Shown here: positions 2,409 through 25,921 of the stretch, in pieces
Layout of the letters: each line of letters begins with the position of its first letter
Position numbering within the stretch: the first letter of the stretch is position 1
Origin: Ignavibacteriaceae bacterium
GTDB lineage: Bacteria; Bacteroidota; Ignavibacteria; Ignavibacteriales; Ignavibacteriaceae
Assembly: GCA_025455085.1 (NCBI GenBank)
Contig: JALONF010000001.1
Coordinates: 1-27,136, forward strand
Reading direction: 5' to 3'
Length of the DNA stretch: 27,136 nucleotides
Translations under genes and position numbers: made by a program
The notes under the pieces: model-generated
Told to the model about the DNA's origin: nothing
Database searches by the model: none
Seen by the model: only the letters and a program-made list of their open reading frames with translations

Positions 2409-2900
2409 TTATTTTTTAGGAACTTCAGCGGCCTGCTCTTCAAGCATCTGATTTTCTTTTTCAGCTTTTACTTTAGCTTCCTTCTCTTTAGCTTTTGTTT
2501 CTCTTTTTTCCTTCTGCTGTTCGGCTCTTGCAGTTACAACTTCATTATAATCAACTAGTTCAAGTATAGCCATCTGTGCTGCATCACCTTCTCTATATCC
2601 CAGTTTTACAACTCGTGTGTAACCACCGGGTCTATCGCCAATCTTCGGAATAATATCAGAGAATAATTCTTTAACAACTTCTTTATCTTTTACAACCTCC
2701 ATCACCTGCTTCTTTGCGTTTAAATCGCCTTTACGTGCTTTAGTGACAAGTTTCTCTGCAAAACCTCTGGTTTCCTTCGCTTTAGCAAGAGTTGTTTTAA
2801 TTCTCTTATGTTTAAGAAGAGAAGTCATTAAAGAATTTAAAGTAGCCTTTCGATGGCTTGCTGTTCTTCCTAATTTTCTTCCCTTAACATTGTGTCTCAT
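2409..2900 (-). CDS. rplQ: 50S ribosomal protein L17 with a charged C-terminal extension
   Basis: [17 protein letters not shown]...[12 protein letters not shown]...[11 protein letters not shown]; directly downstream of rpoA. Confidence 0.98.
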
Positions 2901-2918
2901 CTGATTACCCTTATCGTT

Positions 2919-3914
2919 TTATTTAGGTTCTGCTTCAACTTTAATATACTTGTCTACATCCATTCCGAATTCTATTCCAAGATCCTCAACAATTTCCATA
3001 AGCTCTGCTAAAGATTTTCTTCCAAAGTTTCTAAACTTGAGCATCTCTGCTTCATCTTTTCTAACCAGGTCACCAAGTATTTTTATATTCGCTGCCTTAA
3101 GACAGTTATGAGATCTTACACTCAACTCAAGATCATCAACTGAAGTTGTAAGTATCTTTTTTATTCTTTCAAACTCAGTATCTTTCTCTGCAACCGGTTG
3201 TTCCTCTTCCTGTTCTATATCGAAATTTATGAACAGCTGAACGTGTTCCCTAAGAATTTTAGCTGCTTGAGTTAGTGAATCATCAGGAGTGATTGAACCA
3301 TCTGTTGAGATTTCCAGAGTAAGTTTTTCGAAATCATTTTTATCGCCGATTCTAACATTCTCAACTGTCATTTTAACATTTCTGATAGGCGTGAAAATAG
3401 AGTCAATAGGAATAACACCGATAGCCTGATCCGGAGATGAATTCTCCACAGCAGGTACGTATCCTGTGCCTTTACCAACTCTTAATTCAACATCAAATTT
3501 TGCACTTTTATTTAAAGTAGCGATATGAAGATCAGGATTTAAAATTTCTATTTCATTACTTGCCTTCTGGATATCAGCCGCGGTCCATTTTTTATCACCA
3601 TTAAAAGACAGATCAATCTTATTCGGTTTTTTCGAAAGTAATTTCATTCTGACCTGTTTAAGATTTAATACGATTTCGGAGACATCTTCAACTACACCCG
3701 GAATGGTTGTAAATTCGTGCAGGATACCGCTGAATTTAACTGAAGTGATTGCAGCTCCAGGCAAGGATGATAGAAGTACGCGCCTTAGTGAATTACCCAG
3801 GGTTACTCCGAATCCTCGTTCCAATGGTTGAAGAGTAAATTTTCCAAAAGTGTTTGAATAATTTGATTCATCCAGAACCACTGATTCAGGCATAATTAAA
3901 TGTGATGTATTCAT
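2919..3914 (-). CDS. rpoA: DNA-directed RNA polymerase subunit alpha
   Basis: LERGFGVTLGNSLRRVLLSS, HEFTTIPGVVEDV, alphaCTD LELSVRSHNCLK...RNFGRKSL. Confidence 0.99.
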   Translation of the reverse strand: MNTSHLIMPESVVLDESNYSNTFGKFTLQPLERGFGVTLGNSLRRVLLSSLPGAAITSVKFSGILHEFTTIPGVVEDVSEIVLNLKQVRMKLLSKKPNKIDLSFNGDKKWTAADIQKASNEIEILNPDLHIATLNKSAKFDVELRVGKGTGYVPAVENSSPDQAIGVIPIDSIFTPIRNVKMTVENVRIGDKNDFEKLTLEISTDGSITPDDSLTQAAKILREHVQLFINFDIEQEEEQPVAEKDTEFERIKKILTTSVDDLELSVRSHNCLKAANIKILGDLVRKDEAEMLKFRNFGRKSLAELMEIVEDLGIEFGMDVDKYIKVEAEPK

Positions 3915-3944
3915 TAAAAAATCCTCTAAAATTTCAAAAATTAA

Positions 3945-4571
3945 TTATTTAGAATAGAGCTCTACAACCAACTGTTCGTTGGCGTTTAGAGGAACATCTG
4001 CTCTTTCCGGAACCTGCAGAAATGTTCCGGTTAATGTTGCTTTATCTATTGTTAGCCAGGGATAAGCACTTTCCTTAACTCTTTTAAGCGAGTTATGAAT
4101 TGCATCCAGCTTCTTACTTTTTTCTTTTACTTTTACAATATCACCTTGAGAGACAAGGTATGACGGAACATCAACCAGTCTGTCATTTACCATAAAATGT
4201 CTATGCTTTATAAGTTGTCTTGCCTGACTTCTTGAAGCAGCAAAGCCCAGCCTGAAGATAACGTTGTCTAATCTTCTCTCAAGAATCTTTATCAGGTTTT
4301 CACCAGTAATACCTTTTTGCTTGATCGCTTTTTCAAAATAATTTCTGAATTGAGTTTCAAGTAATCCATACATTCTTTTGATTTTTTGTTTCTCTCTAAG
4401 CTGTACCCCGTATTCAGATACTTTTGATCTTCTGCTCAGTCCATGTTGACCGGGTGCATAATTACGGGATTCAATCGGGCACTTCTCAGTATAGCATTTC
4501 TGCCCTTTAAGAAAAAGCTTTTGCTTTTCTCTTCTGCATAATTTGCAAACTGAATCTGTGTATCTTGCCAT
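3945..4571 (-). CDS. rpsD: 30S ribosomal protein S4 (Cys-containing N-terminus)
   Basis: MARYTDSVCKLCRRE...KCYTEKC, LERRLDNVIFRLGF, ends LVVELYSK. Confidence 0.99.
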   Translation of the reverse strand: MARYTDSVCKLCRREKQKLFLKGQKCYTEKCPIESRNYAPGQHGLSRRSKVSEYGVQLREKQKIKRMYGLLETQFRNYFEKAIKQKGITGENLIKILERRLDNVIFRLGFAASRSQARQLIKHRHFMVNDRLVDVPSYLVSQGDIVKVKEKSKKLDAIHNSLKRVKESAYPWLTIDKATLTGTFLQVPERADVPLNANEQLVVELYSK

Positions 4572-4590
4572 TTAACGATAACTCCTTCTT

Positions 4591-4977
4591 TTAAACTCTT
4601 CTACGCTTTGGTGGTCTGCATCCGTTATGAGGTATCGGAGTCACATCTTTAATTGATGTTACTTCCAAACCTGCAGTATATAAAGATCTAATTGCCGCTT
4701 CTCTTCCAGAGCCGGGTCCTTTTACTCTGACTTCTACTTTTCTCAATCCGAGATCATAAGCTTCTTTGGCAGCAGCTTCTGCAGATACTTGTGCAGCAAA
4801 GGGTGTATTTTTTCGTGATCCTTTAAAACCATTCTTGCCTGCAGACGACCATGATAATGTGTTGCCATAAATATCCGTGATGGTGACAATTACATTATTG
4901 AATGTTGCTTTTATATGAGCAACGCCATTCAGGTCTACCTGTGTTCTCTTTTTAACTTTTTTTACTGACTTAGCCAA
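4591..4977 (-). CDS. rpsK: 30S ribosomal protein S11 (TTG start)
   Basis: [35 protein letters not shown]; GGAGG upstream of TTG. Confidence 0.99.
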
Positions 4978-5001
4978 TCAAAATCCTCCGATTAACAAAA
5001 A

Positions 5002-5385
5002 TTATTTCTTAGTTGGTGTTTTCTTCTTGCCGGCAACAGTTTTACGTTTGCCTTTCCTGGTTCTGGAATTAGTTCTTGTTCTCTGACCTCTAGCAGGGAG
5101 ACCTTTTCTGTGTCTTATTCCTCTATAAGCTCCGATATCCATTAATCTTTTAATATTCTGCTGAACTTCAGAACGAAGTGCTCCTTCAACTTTAAACTCA
5201 GCAGTGATAACCGCTCTTATCTGTGCTACATCTTCTTCAGTAAGATCGCCAACTTTTTTGTTGGGATCTATTTTTGCCTTCTCAAGAATATCTGAAGACG
5301 ATGTAGGTCCTATCCCATATATATATTGAAGACCGAATAAGACTTTTTTATTTTTAGGTAAATCAACACCTGATATACGTGCCAA
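5002..5385 (-). CDS. rpsM: 30S ribosomal protein S13 (TTG start)
   Basis: [36 protein letters not shown]; AAGGAG upstream. Confidence 0.99.
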
Positions 5386-5405
5386 TTAAAACTCCTTTAT
5401 TAATT

Positions 5406-5519
5406 TTAACCTTGTCTCTGCTTGTGCTTTGGATTAGAGCAAATAACTCTAACGACGCCCTTGCGTCTGATTATTTTGCACTTATCGCATATTTTTCTTA
5501 CTGATGATCTAACTTTCAT
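5406..5519 (-). CDS. rpmJ: 50S ribosomal protein L36, zinc-ribbon form (absent from ORF track)
   Basis: Manual translation [37 protein letters not shown] (37 aa), in the canonical infA-rpsM slot. Confidence 0.98.
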
Positions 5520-5529
5520 TTTATACCCA

Positions 5530-5748
5530 TTATTTATATCTGTAAGTTATTCTTCCCTTCGATAAATCGTAGGGAGACATTTCAACCGAAACTTTATCGC
5601 CAACAAGAATTTTAATAAAATGCATTCTCATCTTGCCTGAAATATGAGCAAGGATTTCATGACCATTATCCAGTTTTACCCTGAAAGTTGCGTTAGGTAA
5701 AGTTTCGGTAATAACGCCATCTATTTTTATTGGTCCTTGTTTAGCCAT
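5530..5748 (-). CDS. infA: Translation initiation factor IF-1
   Basis: [11 protein letters not shown]...[20 protein letters not shown]...[13 protein letters not shown]. The start is placed at ATG 5748, which overlaps the map stop (TAATG), rather than at 5754. Confidence 0.98.
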
Positions 5749-6509
5749 TAACAAACAGTTAAGATTTCCGGTGAATTATCCAATATTAAAATCGTATGCT
5801 CAAAATGAGCTGATGGAGAACCATCCGCCGTTATCACAGTCCAGCCATCCGGAGAAGTAATCACTTCATAACCACCAGTATTTACCATAGGCTCAATGGC
5901 AATCGTCATTCCTCTTTTCAATTTTGAGCCAGTTCCTCTTTTCCCAAAATTTGGAACTGCAGGATCTTCGTGAAGAAATTTACCAACACCGTGCCCACAA
6001 AGGTCTCTTACGATAGAAAATCCGTTCTGCTCAACATAATCCTGAACTGCTGCTGATATATCGTGGACTCTGTTTCCATTTTTGGCTTGCTCAATACCGA
6101 GTTGCAATGATTTTTCTGTTACTTCCATAAGCTTTTTCTTTTCATCAGAAATTTTTCCAACTGCAACGGTTATTGCTGCATCACCATAATAATTATTTTT
6201 AAGAACACCAACGTCGAGAGAAATTATATCTCCTTCTTCAAGTTTAACCTGACCGGGTATTCCGTGCACTACCGCATCGTTTATAGAAGTGCAAACCGAA
6301 CCCGGAAAACCAGGCAATCCTCCCTGCGAATATCCTTTGAAAGCAGGAATTGCACTGTTACTTCTTATATAATCTTCTGCTATTCTATCTAATTCAAATG
6401 TCGTAACACCAATTTTAACATTACTCTTAACTAAGCGAAGCGTCTCTGCAACTATCCTACAACTCTCTCTTATAAAATCAATTTCCTTTTGAGTCTTTAT
6501 ATATATCAC
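5748..6509 (-). CDS. map: Type I methionine aminopeptidase (GTG start)
   Basis: [28 protein letters not shown]...HEDP, AIEPM, SAHFEHT metal-ligand motifs. Confidence 0.98.
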
Positions 6510-6516
6510 AGACTAA

Positions 6517-7854
6517 CTAAGCTCTGCGTCCTTTGAATTTTCCGGACTTCATAAAACCATCGTAATGTCTCATCAATAAATGCGATTCAATTTGCTGAAG
6601 CGTATCCAGTGCTACACCAACGATAATGAGAAGACTGGTTCCACCAAAAAACTGTGCGAATTGGCCGGATACATCAAAACCTGAAACAAATGCCGGTAAA
6701 ATTGCAATGATAGCCAGGAAGATTGATCCGGGTAGAGTAATCTTTGTTAAAATATTATCAATGAACTCAGAAGTTTGCTTCCCGGGTCTTATACCTGGAA
6801 TAAATCCGCCCTGCTTTTTCATGTTATCAGCCACATCTTTTGGATTAAATGCTATAGCAGTATAAAAATATGTGAAGAACACAATCATCAAGGCATAGAT
6901 CACAGAATAAACCGGAGAATTATAAACAAAATAAGTAGATAAACTCTGCAAAAATTCATTATCAGGGAAAAATGATAATACAGTGTTAGGTATAAACATA
7001 ATTGACTGTGCAAAAATTATTGGCATTACTCCGGCTGTGTTTACCCGCAAAGGAATGTACTGAGTTACACCGCCATAAATTTTTCTCCCAACAACGCGTT
7101 TTGCATACTGAACCGGAATTCTCCTTGTGCCCTGAGTAACAAGCACAACACCAGCAATTATAAAGAACATGAATACTAAAATTATTATTTCGATGATAAT
7201 CGATCTCTGCCCAACGCTAATCAGTCTTATCTCATCAAAGATGGCGTGTGGGAATCTTGCAATGATTCCGATAAAAATTATCAAAGAAATTCCGTTGCCA
7301 ATACCTTTTTCGGTTATCTGTTCTCCCATCCACATCATAAAGATTGTTCCGGATGTAAGAATTATAATAGTCGTAAGAACCCATGCAAAACCGCTCACAG
7401 CCTCAGGAACAATTGGTAATCCCTGAACTTGAATATTCAATAGCCTGATTGTAACGCCCCATGCCTGCATTGCAGAAATCAAAACTGTACCGTAACGGGT
7501 AAGCTGCGTTATCTTCTTTCTGCCTTCTTCACCTTCCTGCTGCAGTTTCTGAAAATATGGAACAACAGCACCAAGGAGCTGAATAATAATTGAAGCCGAA
7601 ATGTAAGGCATTATTCCAAGTGCAAATATTGCTGCATTCGAGAAAGCACCTCCAACGAACATATCGTATAAACCAAAAAGGTTATCCGTGGTTGCATTTT
7701 TCATACTCTCTGTGAGCAGTGTAGTATCAACACCCGGAATCGTTATATGTGCACCTAAACGAACAAGAAAAAGCAGTGCCAGCGTATAGAAAATCCTCTG
7801 GCGGAGTTCGTGTATTTTAAAGATGTTCCGGAAAGTATCTGTAAGTCTCGACAT
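6517..7854 (-). CDS. secY: Preprotein translocase subunit SecY
   Basis: IFALGIMPYISASII, GIGNGISLIIF, RIPVQYA, GGFIPGIRPG, GGTSLLIIVGV; multiple hydrophobic segments. Confidence 0.99.
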   Translation of the reverse strand: MSRLTDTFRNIFKIHELRQRIFYTLALLFLVRLGAHITIPGVDTTLLTESMKNATTDNLFGLYDMFVGGAFSNAAIFALGIMPYISASIIIQLLGAVVPYFQKLQQEGEEGRKKITQLTRYGTVLISAMQAWGVTIRLLNIQVQGLPIVPEAVSGFAWVLTTIIILTSGTIFMMWMGEQITEKGIGNGISLIIFIGIIARFPHAIFDEIRLISVGQRSIIIEIIILVFMFFIIAGVVLVTQGTRRIPVQYAKRVVGRKIYGGVTQYIPLRVNTAGVMPIIFAQSIMFIPNTVLSFFPDNEFLQSLSTYFVYNSPVYSVIYALMIVFFTYFYTAIAFNPKDVADNMKKQGGFIPGIRPGKQTSEFIDNILTKITLPGSIFLAIIAILPAFVSGFDVSGQFAQFFGGTSLLIIVGVALDTLQQIESHLLMRHYDGFMKSGKFKGRRA

Positions 7855-7865
7855 TTAATACCGCA

Positions 7866-8321
7866 TTAAATTAACTTTATTGAACCGCCAGCCGATTCTA
7901 TTTTTTCTTTTGCACTTTTGCTGATTGCATTAACCTCAAGATTTATTTTTGCTTTTATTTCGCCTTTAGCTAAAATCTTTACCGGCTTTTTTATGCTGGA
8001 AATCAAGCCTAAGTTTTTTAATTCTTCAATATTTAAAACTTTATCACCCTTATTTTCATCAGCTATTCTTTGCAGAGCATTAAGATTTACAACCTGGTAA
8101 GTTTCCTTAAAAATATTTGTGAACCCGAATTTCGGAATTCTTCTTTGCAAAGGCATCTGACCACCTTCAAACCAGGATCTCTTTTTTGAACCTGAACGTG
8201 ATCGCTGACCATTCATTCCTCTGGTTGCCTGACCGCCGTGACCTGAGCCCTCGCCTCTGCCGACTCTCTTTCGTTTTTTTCTTGAGCCTTCAGCGTATTT
8301 TAGATTACTTAGAATATCCAT
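7866..8321 (-). CDS. rplO: 50S ribosomal protein L15
   Basis: RVGRGEGSGHG...FEGGQMPLQRRIPKFGF...SAKEKIESAGG. Confidence 0.99.
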   Translation of the reverse strand: MDILSNLKYAEGSRKKRKRVGRGEGSGHGGQATRGMNGQRSRSGSKKRSWFEGGQMPLQRRIPKFGFTNIFKETYQVVNLNALQRIADENKGDKVLNIEELKNLGLISSIKKPVKILAKGEIKAKINLEVNAISKSAKEKIESAGGSIKLI

Positions 8322-8333
8322 TGTATAATTTCC

Positions 8334-8519
8334 TTATTCTTTTACTTCTTCAACCTTAACAAGATGATTAACTTTTTTAATCATACCCCTTATTTGAGGA
8401 GTATCATTATGAAGTTTTTCCCAGTTAGGTCTGCCCAGACCCAGAGCTTCAATAATTTTTTTCTGTTTCTCTGGTCTGTCTATAATACTTTTAGTTTGTA
8501 TAATTTTTAACTTAGCCAT
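8334..8519 (-). CDS. rpmD: 50S ribosomal protein L30
   Basis: MAKLKIIQTKSII...ALGL...PQIRGMIKKVNHLVKVEE (61 aa). The start is corrected to ATG 8519, which has an AGAGGA upstream. Confidence 0.96.
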   Translation of the reverse strand: MAKLKIIQTKSIIDRPEKQKKIIEALGLGRPNWEKLHNDTPQIRGMIKKVNHLVKVEEVKE

Positions 8520-8529
8520 AAATCCTCTG

Positions 8530-9036
8530 TTAAGAAGCAAAAATTTCCTGAATAGTTTTTCCTCTTTTGTTCGCCATCGATTTAGCATCAACTTGCATCA
8601 GTAATCCATTCAAAGTCGCTTTAACCTGGTTATGAGGATTACTTGAACCAAGAGATTTTGTTAAGATATCCTGAACGCCAGCAGCTTCCAGAACAGCTCT
8701 TACACCGCCACCAGCGATAAGTCCGGTTCCTGGTGACGCTGGTTTTAATAACACTTTACCGGCACCAAACCTGCCGACGATTTCATGTGAAATTGTTCCT
8801 CTTCGAACGGAAACCTTCACAAGATTTTTCTTGGCATCATCAATTCCTTTGGATATTGCATCAGTAACTTCATTTGCTTTTCCAAGTCCAACACCAACGA
8901 TTCCGTTTCCATCACCAACCACAACGATTGCGTTAAAGCTAAAGCGTCGTCCGCCTTTTACAACTTTAGCAACACGATTAATGTGAACAACTTTTTCTTT
9001 TAATCCGTCTGTTTCAGTGGATTTAACTCTTTTCAA
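8530..9036 (-). CDS. rpsE: 30S ribosomal protein S5 (TTG start)
   Basis: [36 protein letters not shown]; AGGAGA at 9042-9047. Confidence 0.99.
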
Positions 9037-9073
9037 ATTGATCTCCTAAAATCTATCATTATTAAAATGGAAG

Positions 9074-9144
9074 CTGCCGGGAGAGGATTCGAACCTCTAC
9101 AGACGCCTCCAAAGGGCGTAGTCCTACCATTAGACGACCCGGCA
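9074..9144 (-). tRNA. tRNA-Gln, anticodon TTG (UUG); CCA not encoded
   Basis: Minus strand TGCCGGG TC GTCT AATGGTA GGAC T ACGCC CT-TTG-GA GGCGT CTGT AGAGG TTCGAAT CCTCT CCCGGCA G. Perfect 7-bp acceptor, 5-bp anticodon and 5-bp T stems, GG in the D-loop, and U1-A72 plus discriminator G as in bacterial tRNA-Gln. Confidence 0.97.
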
Positions 9145-9151
9145 ATAAACA

Positions 9152-9511
9152 TCAGAATTGAAGTCCTCCCTCGCGGGCACCATCGGCCAAAGCTTTAACT
9201 CTGCCGTGATATTTGAAACCACCCCTGTCGAACACAACATTCTTAATGTTTTTCTCCAACGCTTTTTTTGCAAGCATATTACCGATTAGCTTGCTCTTAT
9301 TGACTTTACCTTTAATTGACTTAACTTCAGCTTTTGCCTCTTTAGCTAAGCTTGAAATCGCAACTAAAGTATTTCCGGTTGAATCGTCTATAATTTGAGC
9401 ATAAATATTATCGAGACTTCTGTAAACTGAAAGACGAGGTCTTCCTGCTGTTCCAGAAATCTTTTTCCTAATTTTTATTTTTGCTCTACTTCTTGATGTT
9501 TTCTTTTTCAT
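9152..9511 (-). CDS. rplR: 50S ribosomal protein L18
   Basis: RPRLSVYRS...IYAQIIDD...[28 protein letters not shown]. Confidence 0.99.
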
Positions 9512-9532
9512 TACAAATAAAACTCCTAAAAA

Positions 9533-10072
9533 TTATGCCCCAGCAGTCTTACCGGCTTTGCGAATAATTCGTTCATCTGAATATTTTATTCCCTTACCTT
9601 TGTAAGGTTCAGGTTTCCTGAATGATCTGATTTTTGCAGCAACAAGTCCAACTAATTCCTTGTCGATACCTGAAATTATTATTTGGGTCGGAGCAGGAAC
9701 CTCAAGCTTTACATCATCAGGCGGAACAAAATATATAGGATGAGAGTAACCGATATTCAATAATAAATTTTTCCCTTTAAGTTCAGCTTTATAACCAACA
9801 CCAACAATTTCAAGACTCTTTTTATACGAATCGGTAACACCGATAATCATATTCTGAATCAATGCACGAGTTAGACCATGTAAAGACCTTGTTTCCTTTA
9901 AGTCATCAGGTCTGCTGAACTTTATTTCATTCTCAACAATTTCAGCCTTGATTGTAGGATGAATTGTTTTGTGAAGCTCGCCTTTAGGTCCTTTAACTTT
10001 TATTACCTGACCTTCCAAATTAATATTGACCCCTTTTGGAATCTCTACAGGTTTTTTACCAATTCTGGACAA
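9533..10072 (-). CDS. rplF: 50S ribosomal protein L6 (TTG start)
   Basis: MSRIGKKPV, VKGPKGEL, RKPEPYKGKGIKY. Confidence 0.99.
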   Translation of the reverse strand: MSRIGKKPVEIPKGVNINLEGQVIKVKGPKGELHKTIHPTIKAEIVENEIKFSRPDDLKETRSLHGLTRALIQNMIIGVTDSYKKSLEIVGVGYKAELKGKNLLLNIGYSHPIYFVPPDDVKLEVPAPTQIIISGIDKELVGLVAAKIRSFRKPEPYKGKGIKYSDERIIRKAGKTAGA

Positions 10073-10095
10073 TCTTTAATCTCCGACTTTAAATT

Positions 10096-10491
10096 TTACC
10101 ATATATAACAAATTACTTCGCCACCGATGAGTTGATTTCTTGCATCCTTATCGGTTAATAAACCTTTGGGAGTAGAAATAACTGCAGTGCCTAAACCATT
10201 TAAAACTTTTGGCAACTTATCAGCCCCTCTGTAAACACGTAAACCAGGTTTACTTATTCTCTTCAAGCCATTGATGGCTGATATTCCGTTCTTATATTTT
10301 AAAACAAGATTCAGTTTCTTCTGTTTATTGTCATCAATTATTTCGTAATCAACTATATAACCTAGGTTTTTAAGAATTTCTGACAAACCAATTTTAGTTC
10401 TGGATGCAGGAATTTCAACACGCACTTTTTTTGCTTTGGCAGCGTTTCTAATTCTTGTTAAATAATCTGCTATTGGGTCTGTAACTGGCAT
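10096..10491 (-). CDS. rpsH: 30S ribosomal protein S8
   Basis: [42 protein letters not shown]. Confidence 0.99.
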
Positions 10492-10506
10492 TTATACTTT
10501 CTCCGT

Positions 10507-10776
10507 TTACCAACTTGATTTTTTTACGCCTGGAATTTCGCCTTTCAGAGCCATTTCTCTGAATACTAATCTTGAAATTCCAAATTTTCTGTAATAACTT
10601 CTTGCTCTTCCCGTAAACATACATCGGTTCTTTAATCTGGTCATAGAAGAATCTCGAGGAAGTTTCTGAAGCTCTTCATAATCACCATTCGCTTTCAGCT
10701 CTGCACGCTGCTTCCTGTACTTTTCATAAAGCATGTGTCTTTTTGTTTCTCTTGCTATTAAACATGTACGAGCCAT
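10507..10776 (-). CDS. rpsN: 30S ribosomal protein S14, 89-aa form lacking the four-Cys zinc motif
   Basis: [51 protein letters not shown]. Confidence 0.97.
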
Positions 10777-10784
10777 TAAATCTC

Positions 10785-11438
10785 CTAAGCTGTTTTAATT
10801 TCTTTTTTAATGAAAGGCATTCCAAATAATTTCAATAATTCGTAAGCCTCTTTATCAGATTTAGCTGATGTTACTATTGTAATATCCATTCCAAGAACTT
10901 TGGTTATCTTATCAACATTTATCTCAGGAAAAATAATCTGTTCTCTAACACCCAGAGTATAATTTCCTCTTCCGTCAAAAGATTTGTCTGACAAGCCGCG
11001 AAAGTCTCTTACACGAGGCAGAGCAACATTTATAAGCCTATCAAGAAACTCATACATTCTTTCTTTTCGCAGAGTTACCATTGCACCGATGCTGAGACCT
11101 TCTCTTAATTTAAAGTTTGAAATTGCTTTCTTAGCTTTTCTAATACTTGCTTTCTGACCTGTTATTGATTCCAGTTCTCTAACAGCTTCCTCAAGAATTT
11201 TAGGTTCGGCAACTGCAGCTCCAACTCCCATATTCACCACAATTTTCTCGATTTTCGGAACTTGCATTACGTTATTATAGCCTAAGGTTTTCTTCAAACC
11301 GGGAATAACTTCAGCACGATAGTAATCAAAAAGTCTGCTCGGAATTTTAACATCCTTTTCGGTGGATGGTTTCCCAGCATCTTTCTTTGGTTTTTCTTTT
11401 TTCTCTTTTGATTCTTTTACTTGTTTTTTTTCTGCCAT
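10785..11438 (-). CDS. rplE: 50S ribosomal protein L5 with a Lys/Glu-rich N-terminal extension
   Basis: [42 protein letters not shown]. Confidence 0.98.
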
Positions 11439-11464
11439 CTGTCTAACAATAATTTAAATTCTGA

Positions 11465-11788
11465 CTAAATCATTTCTCCGCTTACTTTAGATACGCGGGC
11501 AATTTTCTTTTTACCTGTTTTCTCATCAAGGATAATTCTCGATCCAAGACGAGTTGGCTCATTGCTCTTGGGATCAAGTATCATCACATTAGAAGCATGT
11601 ATTGATGCTTCTTTTTCAAGAATTCCGCCCTGCGGACTTTTTCGGTTCGGTTTTGTATGCCGCTTCCTTAGATTTATACCTTCGACGATAACTCTATATT
11701 TCGCTGGGAATACTTTAAGTACTTTTCCGGTCTTACCTCGGTCATTACCGGAAATTACCATAACCATATCATTTTTTCTGATTTTCAT
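11465..11788 (-). CDS. rplX: 50S ribosomal protein L24
   Basis: MKIRKNDMVMVISGNDRGKTGKV, VEGIN, EASIHASNV. Confidence 0.98.
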   Translation of the reverse strand: MKIRKNDMVMVISGNDRGKTGKVLKVFPAKYRVIVEGINLRKRHTKPNRKSPQGGILEKEASIHASNVMILDPKSNEPTRLGSRIILDEKTGKKKIARVSKVSGEMI

Positions 11789-11798
11789 AATAAACCTT

Positions 11799-12167
11799 TT
11801 ACAATACTTCGGGTGCTAATGAAACGATTTTCATAAATTGTTTATCTCTCAACTCACGGGCAACAGGACCGAAGATACGTGTGCCACGCGGTTCGTTCTG
11901 AGGATTTATCAACACGGCTGCATTCTCATCAAACCGAATGTATGAACCATCTTTTCTTCTAACTTCTTTTTTAGTTCTCACAATAACTGCTCTGGATACT
12001 TCACCTTTTTTAACTGTTCCGTTCGGCATTGCAGTTTTAACACTAACTACGATCGTATCGCCAACCGTAGCATACCTTCTGCCGCTTCCGCCTAATACCC
12101 TGATGCATCTCACTTTCTTTGCACCGGAATTATCGGCCACGATCAGATTTGTTTCTTCCTGTATCAT
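11799..12167 (-). CDS. rplN: 50S ribosomal protein L14
   Basis: MIQEET...[35 protein letters not shown]. Confidence 0.99.
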
Positions 12168-12185
12168 TGCTCGTAATTCTCCTGC

Positions 12186-12443
12186 CTACTTGGCTTTTTC
12201 AATAATTTCGACTAAGCGCCATCTCTTGTTTAAGCTGAGTGGGCGTGTTTCCATAATTTTTACTTTATCACCAGGTTTACATTCTCTTTTTTCATCGTGA
12301 GCCATAAGCTTGGTAGTCTTCTTAAAGTATTTTTTATAAATAGGATGAGCAACCTTTCTTTCGATGGCAACGGTAATCGTTTTATCCATCTTATTACTAA
12401 CCACAACTCCAATCCTGGTTTTTCTTAATCCGCGTGCTTCCAT
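12186..12443 (-). CDS. rpsQ: 30S ribosomal protein S17
   Basis: [35 protein letters not shown]. Confidence 0.99.
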
Positions 12444-12446
12444 CTT

Positions 12447-12671
12447 TTAAGCTTTTGCTCCTTTCACAAAGGTACCTGCTGTTTGTAATTCTCTTTCCCG
12501 AAGAATTGTCCTCAACCTTGATATATCTCTTTTCACATTTTTTATCTTCGCTGTATTCGTCAATTGTTTCAACTGATGAGAGAACTTTAAGTCAACAAGA
12601 CTTTGCTCTTCATCTTTAATCCTCTGAATTATTTCTTCAGTTTTCATTTCTTTTATTTCGTGAATCTTCAT
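12447..12671 (-). CDS. rpmC: 50S ribosomal protein L29
   Basis: LVDLKF...QLTNTAKIKNVKRDISRLRTIL; canonical rplP-rpsQ slot. Confidence 0.95.
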   Translation of the reverse strand: MKIHEIKEMKTEEIIQRIKDEEQSLVDLKFSHQLKQLTNTAKIKNVKRDISRLRTILRERELQTAGTFVKGAKA

Positions 12672-12685
12672 CTCAAAATCCTTAG

Positions 12686-13102
12686 TTATTCAAAGTCTGG
12701 TCTTGAAACCACTTTAGTTTTAATTGGCAGCTTGTGAGAGCAAAGCTGAAGTGCCTCATTTGCCATTTCCCTGGTAACACCTGACACTTCAAACAGAATT
12801 CTCCCCGGTTTAACAACTGCAACCCAAAATTCTGGTGCGCCCTTTCCCTTACCCATTCTTGTCTCAAGAGGTTTTTTAGAAACGGGTTTGTCAGGAAAAA
12901 TTCTAATCCAAACACGACCGTCTCGTTTCATTTTTCTAGATAGAGCAACACGACACGCTTCAATCTGTCTGCTGGTAATCCATGCTGGTTCAAGAGATTT
13001 TAAACCAAAATCTCCAAACGCAACCGAACTACCTCGTTTCGCGTAGCCTTTTCTTCTACCTCTATGTGCTTTTCTAAATTTTACTCTTTTCGGCATTAAC
13101 AT
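12686..13102 (-). CDS. rplP: 50S ribosomal protein L16
   Basis: [32 protein letters not shown]. Confidence 0.99.
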
Positions 13103-13123
13103 AATGTTAGCTCCTGCTCAAAA

Positions 13124-13765
13124 TTATTCCATAGCTCTCTTGCCGAGTATTTCTCCACGGCAAATCCACACTTTAATTCCTATTGAGCCATAGATAGTTT
13201 CTGCTCTGCCATTTGCATAATCTATATCAGCTCTTAATGTGTGAAGCGGTATTCTACCATCTTTATATTGTTCAGTTCTTGCAATTTCAGCACCGCCCAA
13301 TCGCCCACCGCACTTAATTCTTATACCTTCGGCACCCATTCTCATCGAAGCTGTAATTGCCATCTTCATCGCTCTTCTGAAGGACACTCTTCCTTCAATC
13401 TGACTAGCGATATTTTCTGCAACCAGATAAGCATCAAGTTCCGGTCTTTTAATTTCTGAAATCTGAATCTTAACTTCTTTATTAGTTATCTGTCTTAATT
13501 CTTCTTCAAGCTGGGTTATTTCTTTACCGCTTTTTCCAATTACAACACCCGGTCTTGACGTATGAATATTTAATATTACATTCTTTGAAGTTCTGTCAAT
13601 TATTATTTTTGATATACCTGCTTTTTTCAATCTGTTTCTTACGTAGCTGCGAAGCTTTTCATCTTCTTTAAGTTTAGTTGCATAACTTTTGCTTTCGTAC
13701 CAGTTCGAGTTCCAACCTCTGATTAAACCTACTCTTAAACCAATCGGATTAGTTTTCTGTCCCAA
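13124..13765 (-). CDS. rpsC: 30S ribosomal protein S3 (TTG start)
   Basis: [42 protein letters not shown]. Confidence 0.99.
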
Positions 13766-13780
13766 AAATTTCTCCTTAAA

Positions 13781-14128
13781 TTATGCTTTTTTTGCTACTA
13801 TAATTGTTAAGTGACAGGATCTTTTCCTTATCCTGTATGCTCTGCCTTGCGGTGCAGGCGATATTCTTCTCAAAGTCGGACCAACATTGACGTACGCTTC
13901 TTTTACGAAAAGATCAGCGGGTTCAACTCTTACAGTTTCTTCTTTTGTATTAATAAGATTAGATACAGCAGACCTCAACGTTTTTTCCGCATCTTTAGAT
14001 GAATGCTTTGGAGAGAAGTGAAGAATCTCCAATGCTTTATCTACTGATTCACCTCTAATTAAATCAACCACCAATCTCATTTTTCTTGGTGATGAACCTA
14101 TAAATCTGTTTATTGCTCTTGCTTCCAT
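13781..14128 (-). CDS. rplV: 50S ribosomal protein L22
   Basis: SPRKMRLVVDLIRG, PQGRAYRIRKRSCHLTI. Confidence 0.99.
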   Translation of the reverse strand: MEARAINRFIGSSPRKMRLVVDLIRGESVDKALEILHFSPKHSSKDAEKTLRSAVSNLINTKEETVRVEPADLFVKEAYVNVGPTLRRISPAPQGRAYRIRKRSCHLTIIVAKKA

Positions 14129-14147
14129 CGTACTTAATCTTTCTTAA

Positions 14148-14435
14148 TTAACCGGCTTTAGCTGCTTTTTCTGCTTTAGTGCCAGGATGACCTCTGAATA
14201 TTCGAGTTGGTGAAAATTCTCCTAATTTATGTCCGACCATATTTTCTGTAATGAAAATCGGAATCATTTTGTTTCCATTATGAACTGCAATAGTATGACC
14301 AACAAAATCAGGTGTTATGATTGATGCACGTGACCAAGTCTTAACTATTTTCTTTTGATTAGCATTATTAAGCTGTTTGATTCTTTCAAGCAGTTTATAA
14401 TGTATAAAAGGTCCTTTTTTTACCGAACGAGGCAT
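14148..14435 (-). CDS. rpsS: 30S ribosomal protein S19
   Basis: [29 protein letters not shown]. Confidence 0.99.
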
Positions 14436-14444
14436 AAGCTAAAC

Positions 14445-15272
14445 CTAATTTTTCCTTCTTTTAATGATGTATTTATTAGATTGATTTTTTCTTTTACGAG
14501 TTTTCAATCCTTTAGATTTCTGTCCCCAAGGAGATACAGGATGACCACCGCCCGAAGTTTTACCTTCACCGCCACCCATCGGGTGATCAACAGGGTTCAT
14601 TGCAACTCCTCTGACGTATGAACGTCTTCCCAACCATCGTGTTCTTCCTGCTTTTCCAAGACTAATATTTTCGTGCTCTGAATTTCCTACCATTCCATAT
14701 GTAGCTAAACAATCAATATTTATAAGTCTTACTTCACCTGAAGGCATTTTTAGCTGAGCTAAGTTTCCTTCTTTTGCCATTAATTGAAGAGAACTGCCGG
14801 CACTTCTTCCAAGCTGACCACCTTTTCCAGGTTTAATTTCGACGTTATGAACAAAACTTCCCAATGGCATTTCTTTAAGCGGCAATGTATTACCAACTGA
14901 AATTTCACTTCCAGGTCCGGAAGAAATCGTATCTCCAACTTTCAAACCATTTGGAGCAATTATATATCTTTTTTCACCATCAGCGTAGTGAAGCAGTGCA
15001 ATTCTTGCTGATCTGTTCGGGTCATATTCAATTGAAAAAACTTTTGCGGCTATACCATGCTTATTTCTCTTGAAATCTATAATCCTGTATCTTCTTTTGT
15101 GACCGCCGCCAATATGCCTTGAAGTAATTCTGCCAAGATTATTTCTGCCGCCTGATTTCTTTAATGCAACAGTAAGAGATTTTTCAGGTACAGATTTAGT
15201 GATCTCATCAAAAGTATAATTACTTCTGAATCTTGTTCCCGGTGTTACTGGTTTTAATTTTTTAATTCCCAT
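14445..15272 (-). CDS. rplB: 50S ribosomal protein L2
   Basis: [39 protein letters not shown]. Confidence 0.99.
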
Positions 15273-15293
15273 TTACTTACCTGTTTCTAAAAG

Positions 15294-15587
15294 CTAAACT
15301 GCTTCGAATAGCTCAATTTTTTCCCCTTCTTTAAGGGTGATAATTGCTTTTTTATATTTTGCTGTTTTGCCTGTAAATCTTCCTTTTTTTCTGAACTGAG
15401 TTTTTGTTTTTCCAGGATGATTTATAGTCTTAACTTCTGTTACATGAACATTGAACTTTTCTTCAATCGCCTTAGCAATCTGAATTTTATTTGCTTTTGT
15501 GTTCACCAAAAATCCATACTTGCCTTTGTCAGCTGTAATGTTTGTCATCTTTTCTGTGATTAACGGGCTGATTAATATCTGATGCAT
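15294..15587 (-). CDS. rplW: 50S ribosomal protein L23
   Basis: PLITEK, ANKIQIAKAIE, KKAIITL. Confidence 0.98.
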   Translation of the reverse strand: MHQILISPLITEKMTNITADKGKYGFLVNTKANKIQIAKAIEEKFNVHVTEVKTINHPGKTKTQFRKKGRFTGKTAKYKKAIITLKEGEKIELFEAV

Positions 15588-15588
15588 T

Positions 15589-16239
15589 TTAGTTCACCGC
15601 CTTTTCTTCGTTATCACCGAAAGTATTGGCAATTGCTTCAACAGCAGTATGCTGAAGGACTAATATCTGATTGTTGAGAATATCATAAGTAGAAGCTTTG
15701 CTTGCCTCCATCACACTGACCTTATTAATATTTCTTCCGGATTTGTAAAGATTAGTGTCATTCTTACCTGTTAAAAGAAGAATCTTCTTTCCGTTTAGCT
15801 TTAACGCTTCCATCATTGATACAAAATCTTTAGTCTTCGGCTTATCAAATGAAAAATCTTCAACTACTATCAACTGCTCATCTTTTGCTTTGTAGCTAAG
15901 TGCAGATTTCCTTGCAAGCTGTCTAACTTTTTGTGGAAGCTTCTGTCTGTAATCTCTTGGACGGGGACCAAAAATAGTTCCGCCGCCAATCCATAATGGA
16001 GAACGAGTTGTTCCGGCTCTTGCGGTTCCTCTTCCTTTTTGTCTCCAGGGTTTCTTTCCGCCTCCGCTTACTTCTGATCTTTCTTTTGCTTTATGTGTTC
16101 CCTGCCTCTGATTTGCAAGGAATGCTTTTACAGAAAGATAGATTGCATGATCATTCGGCTGAATGCCGAAGATTTCATCATCAAGCTTTACTTTTTTACC
16201 CGAAGGTTTTCCGTCTATTTTTAATATCTCTAATGTCAT
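15589..16239 (-). CDS. rplD: 50S ribosomal protein L4
   Basis: RQGTHKAKERSEVSGGGKKPWRQKGRGTARAG, FGPRPR. Confidence 0.99.
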   Translation of the reverse strand: MTLEILKIDGKPSGKKVKLDDEIFGIQPNDHAIYLSVKAFLANQRQGTHKAKERSEVSGGGKKPWRQKGRGTARAGTTRSPLWIGGGTIFGPRPRDYRQKLPQKVRQLARKSALSYKAKDEQLIVVEDFSFDKPKTKDFVSMMEALKLNGKKILLLTGKNDTNLYKSGRNINKVSVMEASKASTYDILNNQILVLQHTAVEAIANTFGDNEEKAVN

Positions 16240-16271
16240 GATTATTCAGCTATTAATTCTTTTTTATAAGC

Positions 16272-16895
16272 CTATGGCTTAATCAATTCGACTATTGAAT
16301 TTATTGATCCCGGAACGGCACCTTTTACCAATATCAGATTATCCTCGGGAATAATTTTAATTACTTTAAGGTTACGAACTGTAACATTTTCAAAACCCAT
16401 TCTTCCAGCCATCCTTTGTCCCTTAAAAACTCTTGAGGGATAAGAACTTGCACCTATTGAACCGGGAGCTCTAAGTCTATCACTTTGACCGTGAGTCGTT
16501 CCACCGACACCGCCAAAATTGTGACGCCTCATTACACCCTGAAATCCTTTTCCTTTACTCTTTCCTCTAACTTTGATCAGTTCGCCTTCTTTGAAAAAAT
16601 CAACTTTTATATCGTCACCAACTTTAATGCTATCAACATCAAATCCCTTAAATTCTTTTACAGTTTTAAAAGGAGTCAGACTGTTTTTCTTGAACTGTCC
16701 TAAAACTGGCTTACTAACATGTTTTTCCTTCTTTTCTTCAAAGCCGATAGCTACAGCAGCATAACCGTCTTTTTCTTTTTTACGAAGAGAAACAACTTTA
16801 CAGGGCCCTGCCTGAATAACAGTAACCGTTACTAAATCTCCTTCAGCATTAAAGACGCTGGTCATTCCTATTTTTTTACCTAAAATTCCCGGCAT
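16272..16895 (-). CDS. rplC: 50S ribosomal protein L3
   Basis: GKKIGMT, GKGFQGVMRRH, PSRVFKGQRMAGRMG, VKGAVPG. Confidence 0.99.
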   Translation of the reverse strand: MPGILGKKIGMTSVFNAEGDLVTVTVIQAGPCKVVSLRKKEKDGYAAVAIGFEEKKEKHVSKPVLGQFKKNSLTPFKTVKEFKGFDVDSIKVGDDIKVDFFKEGELIKVRGKSKGKGFQGVMRRHNFGGVGGTTHGQSDRLRAPGSIGASSYPSRVFKGQRMAGRMGFENVTVRNLKVIKIIPEDNLILVKGAVPGSINSIVELIKP

Positions 16896-16913
16896 ATCAA
16901 ACTCGGTTTTAAA

Positions 16914-17222
16914 TTATAACTTAATTTCTATATCAACACCCGCCGGAATATCAAGCTTACTTAATGAATCGACGGTTTTATTATTTGAATTATGAATATC
17001 TATTATTCTCTTGTGTGCACGTGTTTCAAATTGCTCTCGTGATTTTTTATCAACGTGAGGAGATCTCAATACAGTGTATACAGTTTTACGTGTCGGAAGA
17101 GGAATTGGTCCTGAGACTACTGCGCCAGTACTTCTGACAGTTTTAATTATCTTCTCGGTTGACTTATCAATCAAAATATGATCATAAGATTTCAACTTAA
17201 TTCTTATTTTCTGACCAGCCAA
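16914..17222 (-). CDS. rpsJ: 30S ribosomal protein S10 (TTG start)
   Basis: [32 protein letters not shown]; AAGGAG upstream. Confidence 0.99.
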
Positions 17223-17250
17223 TTAGAAACTCCTTTTATTTAACACAATT

Positions 17251-17277
17251 GAAAAGGGAGATAAGGTCTCCCTTTTC
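17251..17277 (-). terminator. Perfect hairpin between tuf and rpsJ; weak terminator, attenuator or mRNA-stabilising stem
   Basis: gaaaagggaga-taagg-tctcccttttc: 11-bp perfect inverted repeat with a 5-nt loop. On the minus strand the GC core is followed by only TTTTCAATT. Confidence 0.6.
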
Positions 17278-17295
17278 TTAATAGAATATTTTTAA

Positions 17296-18504
17296 TTATT
17301 TATAAATCTTTGTTACAACGCCAGCACCAACGGTTCTGCCGCCTTCACGAATAGCGAATCTTAATCCTTCTTCCATAGCGATCTCAGAAATTAATTCAAT
17401 CTTTAGCTTAATATTATCACCTGGCATTACCATTTCCGTACCTTCAGGTAGACTAGCAACACCGGTTACGTCGGTAGTTCTGAAATAGAACTGTGGTCGG
17501 TAACCATTAAAGAATGGTGTATGTCTTCCGCCTTCATTCTTTGATAAGATGTAAACCGAACCATCAAATACTGTATGTGGTGTAATGGAACCGGTTTTTG
17601 CTAATACCATTCCTCTTTCAATTTCATTTTTATCAACACCTCTGAGCAATATTCCGGCGTTATCGCCAGCCATTGCTGAGTCAAGTTCTTTTCTGAACAT
17701 TTCGATACCGGTAACTACAGTCTTTTTGTGAATACCGAGCCCGATAAGTTCAACTTCTTCCTGAAGTTTTACTTCGCCTCTCTCCACTCTACCGGTAGCC
17801 ACTGTACCACGACCTGTAATAGAGAAAACGTCTTCTACAGGCATCAAGAATGGTTTCTTGGTTTCCCTTTCAGGTATTGGAATATATGAATCAACTGCAT
17901 CCATAAGATTCCAGATACACTCTAGAGCAGGATCTTCAACCTTTGAATCAGGATTTGATACAACCTCAAGAGCCTTTAAAGCTGAACCTCTGATAATAGG
18001 AATGTCTTTACCCGGAAATTCATAAGAGGTTAAAAGATCTCTCAATTCTTCTTCAACAAGGTCTAAAAGTTCAGGATCATCAACCATATCAACTTTATTC
18101 ATAAATACAACTATTTTTGGAACACCTACCTGTCTTGCAAGGAGAATATGCTCTCTGGTTTGAGGCATAGGTCCATCCGTAGCAGCAACAACCAGAATAG
18201 CACCATCCATTTGTGCAGCACCGGTAATCATGTTCTTTACATAGTCCGCGTGGCCAGGACAGTCTACGTGAGCGTAGTGTCTCTTTTCAGTTGAATATTC
18301 CACGTGGGCTGTTGCTATTGTAATGCCTCTTTCTCTTTCTTCAGGTGCATTATCAATACTATCGAATGTTCTAATCTCCGAAAGGCCCTTCTTGTTAAGA
18401 GCCATTGTGATGGCGGCAGTTAATGTGGTTTTACCATGATCTACGTGACCAATTGTTCCAACGTTAACGTGCGGCTTACTTCTGTCAAATTTTGCTTTTG
18501 CCAT
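17296..18504 (-). CDS. tuf: Elongation factor Tu
   Basis: [52 protein letters not shown]. Confidence 0.99.
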
Positions 18505-18553
18505 CGGTTTCTCCTTTTAATTTTGTTCCTTTTTTTTATTTATTCTTAATTAA

Positions 18554-20650
18554 TTATACTGCTGTTGATTTCTTGCCTAATGATTTCTCAGCAATCTCCT
18601 CAGCAATAGATTGAGGCACTTGCTGATAATGATCAAACTGCATAGTGTAAATTGCTCTGCCTTGTGTCATTGACCTTAGCACTGTCGCATATCCAAACAT
18701 TTCGGAAAGAGGGACAAACGCTTTTATTACCTGTGCATCTTTCCTTGCATTAAAACCTTCTATTTTTCCTCTTCGTGAATTCAGATCACCCATAACATCT
18801 CCCAAATAATCTTCAGGAGTAACCACCTCAACTGACATTATTGGTTCAAGCAAAATTGGTTTGGCTTTCTGAGATCCACTCTTGAAAGCCATCGAGCCGG
18901 CAACTTTAAATGATAATTCATCAGAATCAACATCGTGATATGAACCATCGTAAAGTTTTACCTTAATATCAACCACCGGGAAGCCCGCAACTACACCGTT
19001 TCTCATCGCTTCCTGAATTCCAGCTGATACTGGCTGAATGTATTCTTTAGGAATTGAACCGCCGACTATTGCATTTATGAATTCAAAACCTTTACCAGGT
19101 TCATTTGGTCCTAATTCAATTTCAACGTGTCCATACTTACCACGACCACCTGATTGCTTAATGAATTTGCCTTCAGCCTTAACATTATCGGTAATTGTCT
19201 CTCTATATGCAACCTGAGGTTTACCAATATTTGCTTCAACTTTGAATTCTCTCTTCATTCTGTCAACAAGAATCTCCAGATGAAGCTCACCCATTCCGCT
19301 TATTAAAGTTTGTCCTGTCTCCTGATCTACATTAACTCTGAATGTTGGATCCTCATCCGAGAGCTTTGAAAGAGAATCGGATAATTTATCCTGGTCCGCT
19401 TTAGTCTTCGGTTCAATTGCAATTTGTATAACTGGTTCAGGAAAAGTAATCTTTTCCAGTACAATCGGATCATCTTCAGAGCATAACGTATCACCCGTCC
19501 TCGTATGCTTCAAACCTACTACTGCAGCAATGTCACCTGCTTTAACTTCAGTGATATCTTCACGATGATTCGCATGCATTTGTAATAGTCTTCCAATTCG
19601 TTCTTTCTTCTGACTCACTGAATTATATACATATGATCCCGCTTTTAAGACTCCTGCATAAACACGAAAGAAACATAATTTACCAACATAAGGGTCGTTC
19701 ATTATTTTGAATGCAAGAGCAACAAATTTTTCTTTTTCATCAATTTTTCTTGTCACCATATCGTTAATACCAATATGATGAGCTTCAATTTCTTTAGTGT
19801 CTATTGGTGATGGAAGTAAATCAACTACATAATCCAGAAGTTTCTGAACTCCTTTATTCTTAAAAGCCGAGCCACATAGAACAGGAATTATCTTCGCTTC
19901 AATTGTTGCCTGTCGAAGCACTTGCAGAACTTCAGCAGGGCTAATTTCCTTGCCATCTAAATATTTTTCTAATAAAGTATCATCGACATCAGAAACGGCT
20001 TCGAGCATTTGAGTTCTGTACTTACTTGCTATTTCCATCAAATCTTGTGGAATTGGAATTTCATCAAATGTAGCACCAAAGGTTTCTTCGTGATACATCC
20101 TTGCATTAAAATGAATAAGATCAATAACTCCGGAAAACAAATCACCCTGACCAATAGGTAAATTAATCGGGATGGCATTTGCTTTCAATCTGTCTTTCAT
20201 CATCTGAACTGCATTATAAAAATCCGCACCAACTCTATCTACCTTATTTATGAATGCTATCCTTGGAACACCATATTTATCCGCCTGCCTCCACACTGTT
20301 TCAGATTGTGGTTCAACACCGCCAACAGCACAGAATAAAGCTACTGCGCCATCTAATACTCTTAATGATCTTTCAACTTCAACTGTAAAATCGACGTGAC
20401 CGGGTGTATCAATAATATTTATCTGATGATCATTCCAGAAACAAGTTGTTGCAGCACTCGTAATTGTAATTCCACGTTCTTTTTCCTGATCCATCCAGTC
20501 CATAACCGCCGCACCATCATGCACTTCGCCAAGTCGATGTAATTTACCGGTATAGAAAAGAATCCGCTCGGTCGTAGTGGTTTTACCCGCATCGATGTGC
20601 GCCATAATCCCAATGTTTCTTACACGTTCTATTTTAGTTCTTTGTGACAT
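18554..20650 (-). CDS. fusA: Elongation factor G
   Basis: [30 protein letters not shown]. The start is placed at ATG 20650 (MSQRTK); the track's GTG at 20674 lies inside rpsG. Confidence 0.99.
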
Positions 20651-20667
20651 AATATTGTTCGTAATTA

Positions 20668-21135: not shown

Positions 21136-21141
21136 ACGTCA

Positions 21142-21516: not shown

Positions 21517-21560
21517 TACTTTCTCCTAAGTTTAATTCATAATAAAAAATTCGGATTTCA

Positions 21561-21589
21561 AATATACTTCTTCATAACAATTAAGTCAA
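21561..21589 (-). promoter_or_regulatory. Sigma70-type promoter for the str (rpsL) operon
   Basis: Minus strand TTGACT (21589-21584), 17-nt spacer, TATATT (21566-21561), in the rpoC-rpsL gap. Confidence 0.7.
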
Positions 21590-21611
21590 GAAATTCAATC
21601 AGAACTTAATG

Positions 21612-25877: not shown

Positions 25878-25921
25878 ATTTTATCTCCTAAGTTCTATTA
25901 AAATTCTTATTAATAAATGAA

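Follow-up and report, generated by a model that had tools for sequence, protein, structure and literature searches.

Co-transcription of a tRNA with an mRNA, followed by release of the tRNA by RNase P, is established in Escherichia coli (PMC2241853). There RNase P cuts the secG-leuU transcript at the 5' end of the tRNA, and the secG mRNA released in this way decays with a half-life of <30 s (PMC2241853). Four tRNAs precede tufB in its operon, thrU-tyrU-glyT-thrT-tufB, and the rpmG/secE-nusG part of the same conserved super-cluster harbors a tRNA-Trp (PMC8046335). In rRNA operons (16S-tRNA-23S), spacer tRNAs are released by RNase P together with 3' processing (PMC10250234). Such a tRNA lies within a long transcript encoding ribosome components, so that tRNA synthesis is tied to ribosome synthesis; this position within the transcript would be shared by the tRNA described below.

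Here we analyze a 27,136-nt stretch of DNA (hereafter the window) from an Ignavibacteriaceae bacterium (GCA_025455085.1, contig JALONF010000001.1, positions 1 to 27,136) in which a tRNA-Gln(UUG) gene lies between rplR and rpsE. Few gene orders in prokaryotes are as conserved as that of the S10-spc-alpha cluster, in which the rplR cistron is ordinarily followed directly by rpsE. As in secG-leuU, the tRNA is located directly downstream of a protein-coding gene, in what would here be a shared transcript. However, leuU is the last gene of its transcript and is followed by a Rho-independent terminator, whereas the Ignavibacteria tRNA is internal and has no terminator, so that cleavage would in addition give a long mRNA on the downstream side its 5' end. 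The tRNAs of the tufB and tRNA-Trp cases are situated at operon edges, upstream of tufB or between operons, while the Ignavibacteria tRNA is inside the spc operon, between otherwise adjacent cistrons, and its identity is Gln. Spacer tRNAs differ in that their host transcript is rRNA, with no translation or ribosome traffic into the tRNA, whereas the host transcript in Ignavibacteria is an mRNA.

The original prediction for this locus had described it as tRNA punctuation. Ojala et al. reportedly described in 1981, for mitochondria, that the mRNAs on either side of a tRNA acquire their ends when the tRNA is excised from the polycistronic transcript. Mitochondrial tRNA punctuation is also covered in PMC5474008. 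The mitochondrial tRNAs flank most genes and abut them directly, whereas the window has a single tRNA among ~36 genes (27 kb), followed by a 37-nt spacer that bears a Shine-Dalgarno (SD) sequence. For these reasons the arrangement is not punctuation of the mitochondrial type, and the label was overstated. The reading that we prefer is that a single functional, presumably essential tRNA-Gln(UUG) moved early into the rplR-rpsE junction, was kept there, and is co-transcribed and released by RNase P; we assign this reading as a whole a probability of roughly 0.72.

Gene Layout at the rplR-rpsE Junction

The only tRNA that ARAGORN identified in the window lies on the minus strand at 9073-9144 and is a tRNA-Gln (anticodon ttg). 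The Rfam model RF00005 matched 9144->9074 over its full length (1-71) with a score of 61.3 bits against a gathering score of 29 (E 3.4e-11). The features of the cluster and of the junction are as follows.

2409..27136, minus strand: single-strand cluster rpoB (3' part)-rpoC-rpsL-rpsG-fusA-tuf-S10 operon-spc operon-alpha operon (rplQ), assigned with Pfam.
9152..9511, minus strand: rplR (ribosomal protein L18), 119 aa; Pfam PF00861, 148.3 bits, E 1.5e-43.
9145..9151, minus strand: 7-nt leader UGUUUAU from the rplR stop to tRNA position 1; predicted RNase P 5' leader.
9074..9144, minus strand: tRNA-Gln(UUG), 71 nt, U1:A72, G73, no encoded CCA; from ARAGORN, Rfam and covariation.
9110..9112, minus strand: anticodon UUG, tRNA linear positions 33-35; ARAGORN places the anticodon at position 33.
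9037..9073, minus strand: 37-nt AU-rich trailer, which is also the rpsE 5' leader; SD AGGAGA at 9047-9042, read from the sequence.
8530..9036, minus strand: rpsE (ribosomal protein S5), 168 aa; Pfam PF00333, 102.6 bits, and PF03719, 101 bits.

Read on the minus strand, rplR ends with TGA at 9154-9152 and rpsE begins with TTG at 9036-9034. The 115-nt gap between them is wholly explained by the 7 nt of leader, 71 nt of tRNA and 37 nt of trailer, and it is the largest gap from rpsJ to rplQ, the others ranging from -7 to 32 nt with the exception of a nominal -62 that stems from an uncertain rpmD start. To judge from this layout, 3' processing of the tRNA must fall within the trailer (9037..9073).

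The Pfam assignments show the spc order rplN-rplX-rplE-rpsN-rpsH-rplF-rplR-rpsE-rpmD-rplO-secY to be intact save for the tRNA between rplR and rpsE, and after the tRNA the order is rpsE-rpmD-rplO-secY-map-infA-rpmJ-rpsM-rpsK-rpsD-rpoA-rplQ. Within the window, 23 protein genes lie upstream of the tRNA and 12 more cluster genes (rpsE to rplQ) lie downstream. The original prediction had placed a complete tRNA-Gln(UUG) at 9074-9144 between rplR and rpsE, on the strand of its flanking genes, with rplN to rplR on one side and rpsE to rpmJ plus the alpha cluster on the other. The coordinates proved exact by ARAGORN, Rfam and Pfam, the tRNA is on the minus strand as is the whole rpoB-to-rplQ cluster, and Pfam confirmed the operon composition.

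Some details of the neighboring reading frames were also recorded. The rplE ORF (10785-11438, minus strand) encodes 217 aa with a Pfam L5 domain starting only at residue 56, and either its true start is further downstream or L5 has an N-terminal extension of ~30 aa in this lineage. The longest rpmD (L30) ORF (8334-8591, minus strand) overlaps rpsE by 62 nt with a Pfam match from residue 28, and its real start is probably a downstream codon near 8520. Downstream of rplQ there are three further ORFs on the same strand (1372-1680, 1759-2343 and 2-1276), which comprise an MMR_HSR1-type small GTPase (194 aa), a 102-aa ORF for which no Pfam match was found, and a GAF-domain protein running off the window.

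Evidence for a Functional tRNA

Covariation was analyzed in 30 distinct copies of the tRNA from the same junction in relatives (630 cells, 21 pairs). Pairing on the cloverleaf was found in 99.8% of the 630 cells, and compensatory changes on both sides occurred in 12 of the 21 pairs. None of 500 shuffles equalled the observed pairing or covariation, and control structures slid by 1-3 columns paired in only 44-57% of cases. The T-T-T-G run formed by U33 and the anticodon (alignment columns 32-35) is invariant in the 30 copies, as are the T-loop and the discriminator G73 (alignment position 71). The anticodon loop is a 7-nt CUUUGGA, with U33 before the anticodon. The first pair is U1:A72 in 28 of the 30 copies and A1:U72 in the other two. 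U1:A72 and G73 are identity elements for E. coli GlnRS. The tRNA had been said to show no sign of decay, a view with which the pairing, the covariation and the invariant anticodon agree.

This assembly has 37 tRNAs by ARAGORN, including one tRNA-Gln(UUG), which is the operon copy, and one tRNA-Gln(CUG). Because the assembly is incomplete (447 contigs, 78% complete), we also typed all 45 Rfam tRNA matches of a closed, one-contig congener (G004), in which every anticodon is present once except CAU (three) and the sole tRNA-Gln(UUG) is again the spc-operon copy. Whether this is the only tRNA-Gln(UUG) of the genome, a question raised with the original prediction, can be answered with yes for both this assembly and the complete congener. 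The codon CAA accounts for 46% of Gln codons in 990 long ORFs and for 37% in the window's own genes and, since the operon tRNA is the sole cognate decoder of this heavily used codon, its gene is presumably essential. We are almost certain that it is functional and the only tRNA-Gln(UUG).

The second Gln isoacceptor (CUG) stayed in a conventional tRNA locus, while the UUG isoacceptor is in the spc operon. In this assembly tRNA-Gln(CUG) and tRNA-Glu(CUC) lie on one strand at C396:4433-5109 (L167:1434-2110), ~525 nt apart, and the same CUG/CUC pair is found in the closed congener (L149) with ~100 nt between its members.

Transcription Signals and RNA-Library Contigs

A consensus scan of the window found no terminator-like site near the tRNA. 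Promoter-like matches to a sigma-70-type consensus, which may not be the consensus of Ignavibacteria, numbered 15 in the window compared with 9.1 +/- 3.4 in shuffles, and were not significantly above them. Across 16 aligned genomes of the genus, identity is ~99% in the tRNA; the leader (5-7 nt) and the greater part of the trailer vary, with conservation confined to the SD and the start region. Third-position identity, slid across rplF, rplR and rpsE in the genus alignment, is 0.68-0.78 in the last 100 nt of rplR against a gene mean of 0.73, with no conserved block in that stretch. Over 76 loci the leader has a median length of 7 nt (range 3-102) and the trailer a median length of 42.5 nt (range 21-137). 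This tight packing is general over the 76 loci and argues against separate transcription units, with the proviso that the promoter consensus of Ignavibacteria may differ from that of sigma-70. The original prediction saw neither a promoter nor a terminator beside the tRNA, and none that is conserved emerged from the sigma-70-type scan, the genus alignment or the 76 trailers; nor was a promoter in rplR combined with a terminator after the tRNA conserved or found in the window.

A terminator-like hairpin plus T-run was detected in one of the 76 trailers, that of locus L038. In this 95-nt trailer a T-run comes after a GC-rich hairpin (-11.5 kcal/mol), and the two may form a terminator or attenuator specific to this lineage, dividing the operon at that point.

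The RNA data consisted of Logan contigs of wetland metatranscriptomes, which are unstranded, have a depth of ~3 and may include carried-over genomic DNA. One contig of 170 nt (X2 record 4) covers 9030-9199 without mismatches, at a depth of ~3 and with DNA carry-over possible, and runs from 48 nt of rplR through the leader, the complete tRNA and the trailer to the start codon of rpsE. A contig from a relative (X3 record 12) corresponds to 9089-9146 and bridges rplR to the tRNA, its flank translating as AREAGLKF*, the C-terminus of L18, and another from a relative (X3 record 11) comprises the 3' part of the tRNA and 60 nt of that relative's trailer. Unprocessed precursors would be expected to yield bridging contigs of this kind, and so could any genomic DNA present in the libraries. 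Neither transcript ends nor joints were called from these contigs. The original prediction that the tRNA is co-transcribed is given slight weight by three short contigs that bridge junctions, at a depth of ~3 and with the possibility of DNA carry-over. Overall, we consider it likely that the tRNA is co-transcribed with the ribosomal-protein genes.

Distribution and Age of the Arrangement

The original prediction called for a comparison of the rplR-rpsE gap across related genomes, and the tRNA proved to be widespread there. In the organism's own order (four families), tRNA-Gln(UUG) is present between rplR and rpsE, on the same strand, in all 29 complete loci. Among 80 public loci found with S5, the tRNA is present in 52, with gaps of 99-309 nt, and absent from 28, with gaps of 18-70 nt, the latter including Bacteroidia, Cytophagales, KSB1 and Calditrichia; the closest of these loci belong to Ignavibacteriaceae, Ignavibacteriales and Melioribacteraceae metagenome-assembled genomes (MAGs). 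The class was sampled with 151 genomes of the GTDB class, in 149 of which rpsE was located, and 56 of the 149 have a tRNA match directly upstream of rpsE. These positive genomes represent 12 families (f1, f3, f4, f5, f7, f11, f13, f16, f18, f25, f26 and f27), to which the order sample adds a thirteenth (f2), while 14 families are negative (f6, f8, f9, f10, f12, f14, f15, f17 and f19-f24). ARAGORN found no tRNA in 20 junctions fetched from the 14 negative families, where the rplR-rpsE gap is 16-59 nt, which speaks against a divergent tRNA missed by BLAST in these junctions.

In a phylum sample of 251 genomes, the in-class loci were in the operon in 24 of 24 cases, and the 17 close tRNA-Gln(UUG) matches from nine families of other classes all had no L18 or S5 within ~1.2-1.5 kb. 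Among the genomes of the rest of the phylum that were checked, none was found to have this tRNA beside rplR or rpsE. A stand-alone tRNA-Gln(UUG) is present ~0.7 Mb from rpsE in one outgroup of the class (G154).

We also placed the two states on a maximum-likelihood tree of L6+L18+S5 (95 rows). At least three state changes are needed on this tree, of which the well-supported branches force only one. The Ignavibacteriales clade is positive throughout (58 of 58), and its sister group has 12 positive and six negative members, the negatives forming one clade (SH-aLRT 96). The simplest history to read from these sequences would be one relocation into the junction in an early ancestor with loss of the original copy, followed later by one loss of the operon copy. 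The placement is an old trait of a large Ignavibacteria branch and is not peculiar to this genome.

One operon copy stands apart from the others. The tRNA-Gln(UUG) at L054:1391-1461, from an Ignavibacteria MAG, has A1:U72 and acceptor, D, anticodon and T stems that make it strongly different from the other copies, while its tree neighbors by ribosomal proteins (L028 and L024) have the standard tRNA sequence. This looks like a swap of the resident tRNA for another tRNA-Gln allele at the same site.

Alternative Explanations

The survey bears directly on whether the arrangement is a recent insertion, the footprint of a mobile element or an assembly or binning artefact of this MAG. A fragmented assembly (447 contigs, 78% complete) makes such an origin conceivable, but the same order and strand recur in >100 independent genomes, including the closed genomes G004, G082 and G352, and we reject it as having practically no chance of being correct. 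It is also highly improbable that the element acts mainly as a tRNA-shaped signal for mRNA processing or stability, rather than as the cell's decoding tRNA-Gln. Its position inside an mRNA operon would suit such a role, as would the very short leader, which would overlap the footprint of a ribosome terminating on rplR. Nevertheless, a complete genome with a full set of 45 tRNAs has no other tRNA-Gln(UUG), and CAA makes up 46% of Gln codons in the 990 long ORFs; there is no variation in the anticodon, T-loop or G73, 28 of 30 copies retain U1:A72 and the stems show covariation; and genomes that have no operon copy have a close homologue elsewhere.

A more serious competitor, which we still regard as unlikely for all of its forms taken jointly, is that the tRNA and/or the rpsE-to-rplQ block have promoters of their own. 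That of the tRNA would lie in its leader or at the 3' end of rplR, and that of rpsE in the trailer or the 3' part of the tRNA; the junction would then mark where transcription units meet rather than where RNA is processed. The AU-rich trailer has the sequence TTTTTATAATGAAAG in several congeners, where a perfect TATAAT lies ~22-27 nt ahead of the start codon and could be a weak rpsE promoter. However, there is no -35 match 16-18 nt from this TATAAT, and the hexamer is absent from the window (TTTTAATAATGATAG) and from the more distant congeners L017-L019. The sigma-70 scan also gave two weak promoter-like sites on the minus strand that would fit this explanation, 9426->9398 (9/12 match, in rplR) and 9705->9678, but the former sits in a conserved L18 peptide motif where the hexamers vary at synonymous third positions, and we rejected it as a conserved promoter. 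One tRNA per transcript may be an undersupply if each mRNA is translated many times, which would favor an extra promoter, and on general reasoning a high demand for the tRNA could favor extra transcription. Against these considerations, no block of synonymous conservation is present at the 3' end of rplR, many lineages have leaders (3-7 nt) and trailers (down to 21 nt) without space for signals, and RNA-library contigs cross both junctions.

Proposed Mechanism and Processing Machinery

According to our preferred reading, of co-transcription and release by RNase P, RNA polymerase transcribing the ribosomal-protein cluster would read straight through the tRNA, and the nascent tRNA would fold and be cut by RNase P at 9145/9144, a cut that the E. 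coli secG-leuU case leads one to expect. This would leave an upstream mRNA that extends 7 nt past the rplR stop codon and has no protective 3' structure. Cleavage within the AU-rich trailer, or its trimming, would release the 3' end of the tRNA, to which a nucleotidyltransferase would add CCA, and the rpsE-to-rplQ mRNA would have a 5' end made by processing, ~25 nt ahead of the SD. A ribosome in the course of terminating on rplR would sit over the first few acceptor-stem nucleotides, and translation and tRNA folding would as a consequence compete with each other. The original prediction had proposed the RNase P cut, separate stabilities for the halves of the operon and a tie between tRNA-Gln supply and ribosome synthesis; the cut is inferred from the analogy, it may alter how stable or how strongly expressed one half is relative to the other, and tRNA-Gln supply may be coupled to ribosome synthesis.

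The genome encodes much of the machinery that such processing would use. A bacterial RNase P RNA of type A scores 305 bits, and a PF01743 nucleotidyltransferase of the CCA-adding type scores 93.8 bits; a CCA-adding enzyme is needed because most tRNAs of this assembly, including the operon tRNA-Gln(UUG), have no encoded CCA. The window's whole genus lacks an encoded CCA at the operon tRNA, where G73 is followed by CUUCC (window 9071-9073 being CUU), and CCA is encoded in 15 of the 76 operon copies (e.g., L020, L023, L024 and L026). Since CCA is encoded in some lineages and absent in others, the route of 3' maturation must differ between them.

RNase Z was considered as the 3' enzyme, and this assembly and the complete congener have only sub-threshold matches to it. 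No match to the RNase Z equivalog (TIGR02651) in either genome exceeded the NCBIfam cut-off of 292.95, the best scores being 72.8 in this assembly and 103.6 in the congener. The sub-threshold matches have a metallo-beta-lactamase fold and are situated at G000:C90:7-240 (minus strand, cut by the contig end) in this assembly and at 579794-580216 and 3718966-3719727 of G004:C1 in the congener.

If co-transcription is correct, which we judged likely, the locus is nothing out of the ordinary among tRNAs that share a transcript with protein genes, a kind of mechanism that is already established. A selected regulatory role for the split of the operon is doubtful. The same doubt applies to the stronger proposal that the embedded tRNA is an obligatory RNase P break point, after which the two halves would differ in lifetime or output, and that selection has kept this kinetic link.

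Significance

The tRNA between rplR and rpsE is not mentioned in the I. album and M. roseus genome papers, and full-text searches of the freely available literature returned no description of it. The placement is real, functional and old, and it is apparently undescribed. As a clean and rare genomic change, present in 13 Ignavibacteria families and not found in 14 others, the insertion can serve as a taxonomic marker.

Should the tRNA be an obligatory break point after all, the rplN-to-rplR half of the operon would lose its 3' structure and the rpsE-to-rplQ half would gain a processed 5' end, and a ribosome at the rplR stop, 7 nt upstream, would gate both the folding of the tRNA and the access of RNase P. 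Translation of ribosomal proteins, supply of tRNA-Gln and mRNA decay would then be kinetically linked across a large branch of the Ignavibacteria. The cultured members of the class, Ignavibacterium album and Melioribacter roseus, would, if they carry the tRNA, offer a natural test system for how the excision of a tRNA from the middle of an mRNA bears on the stability and the stoichiometric expression of the flanking ribosomal-protein genes.
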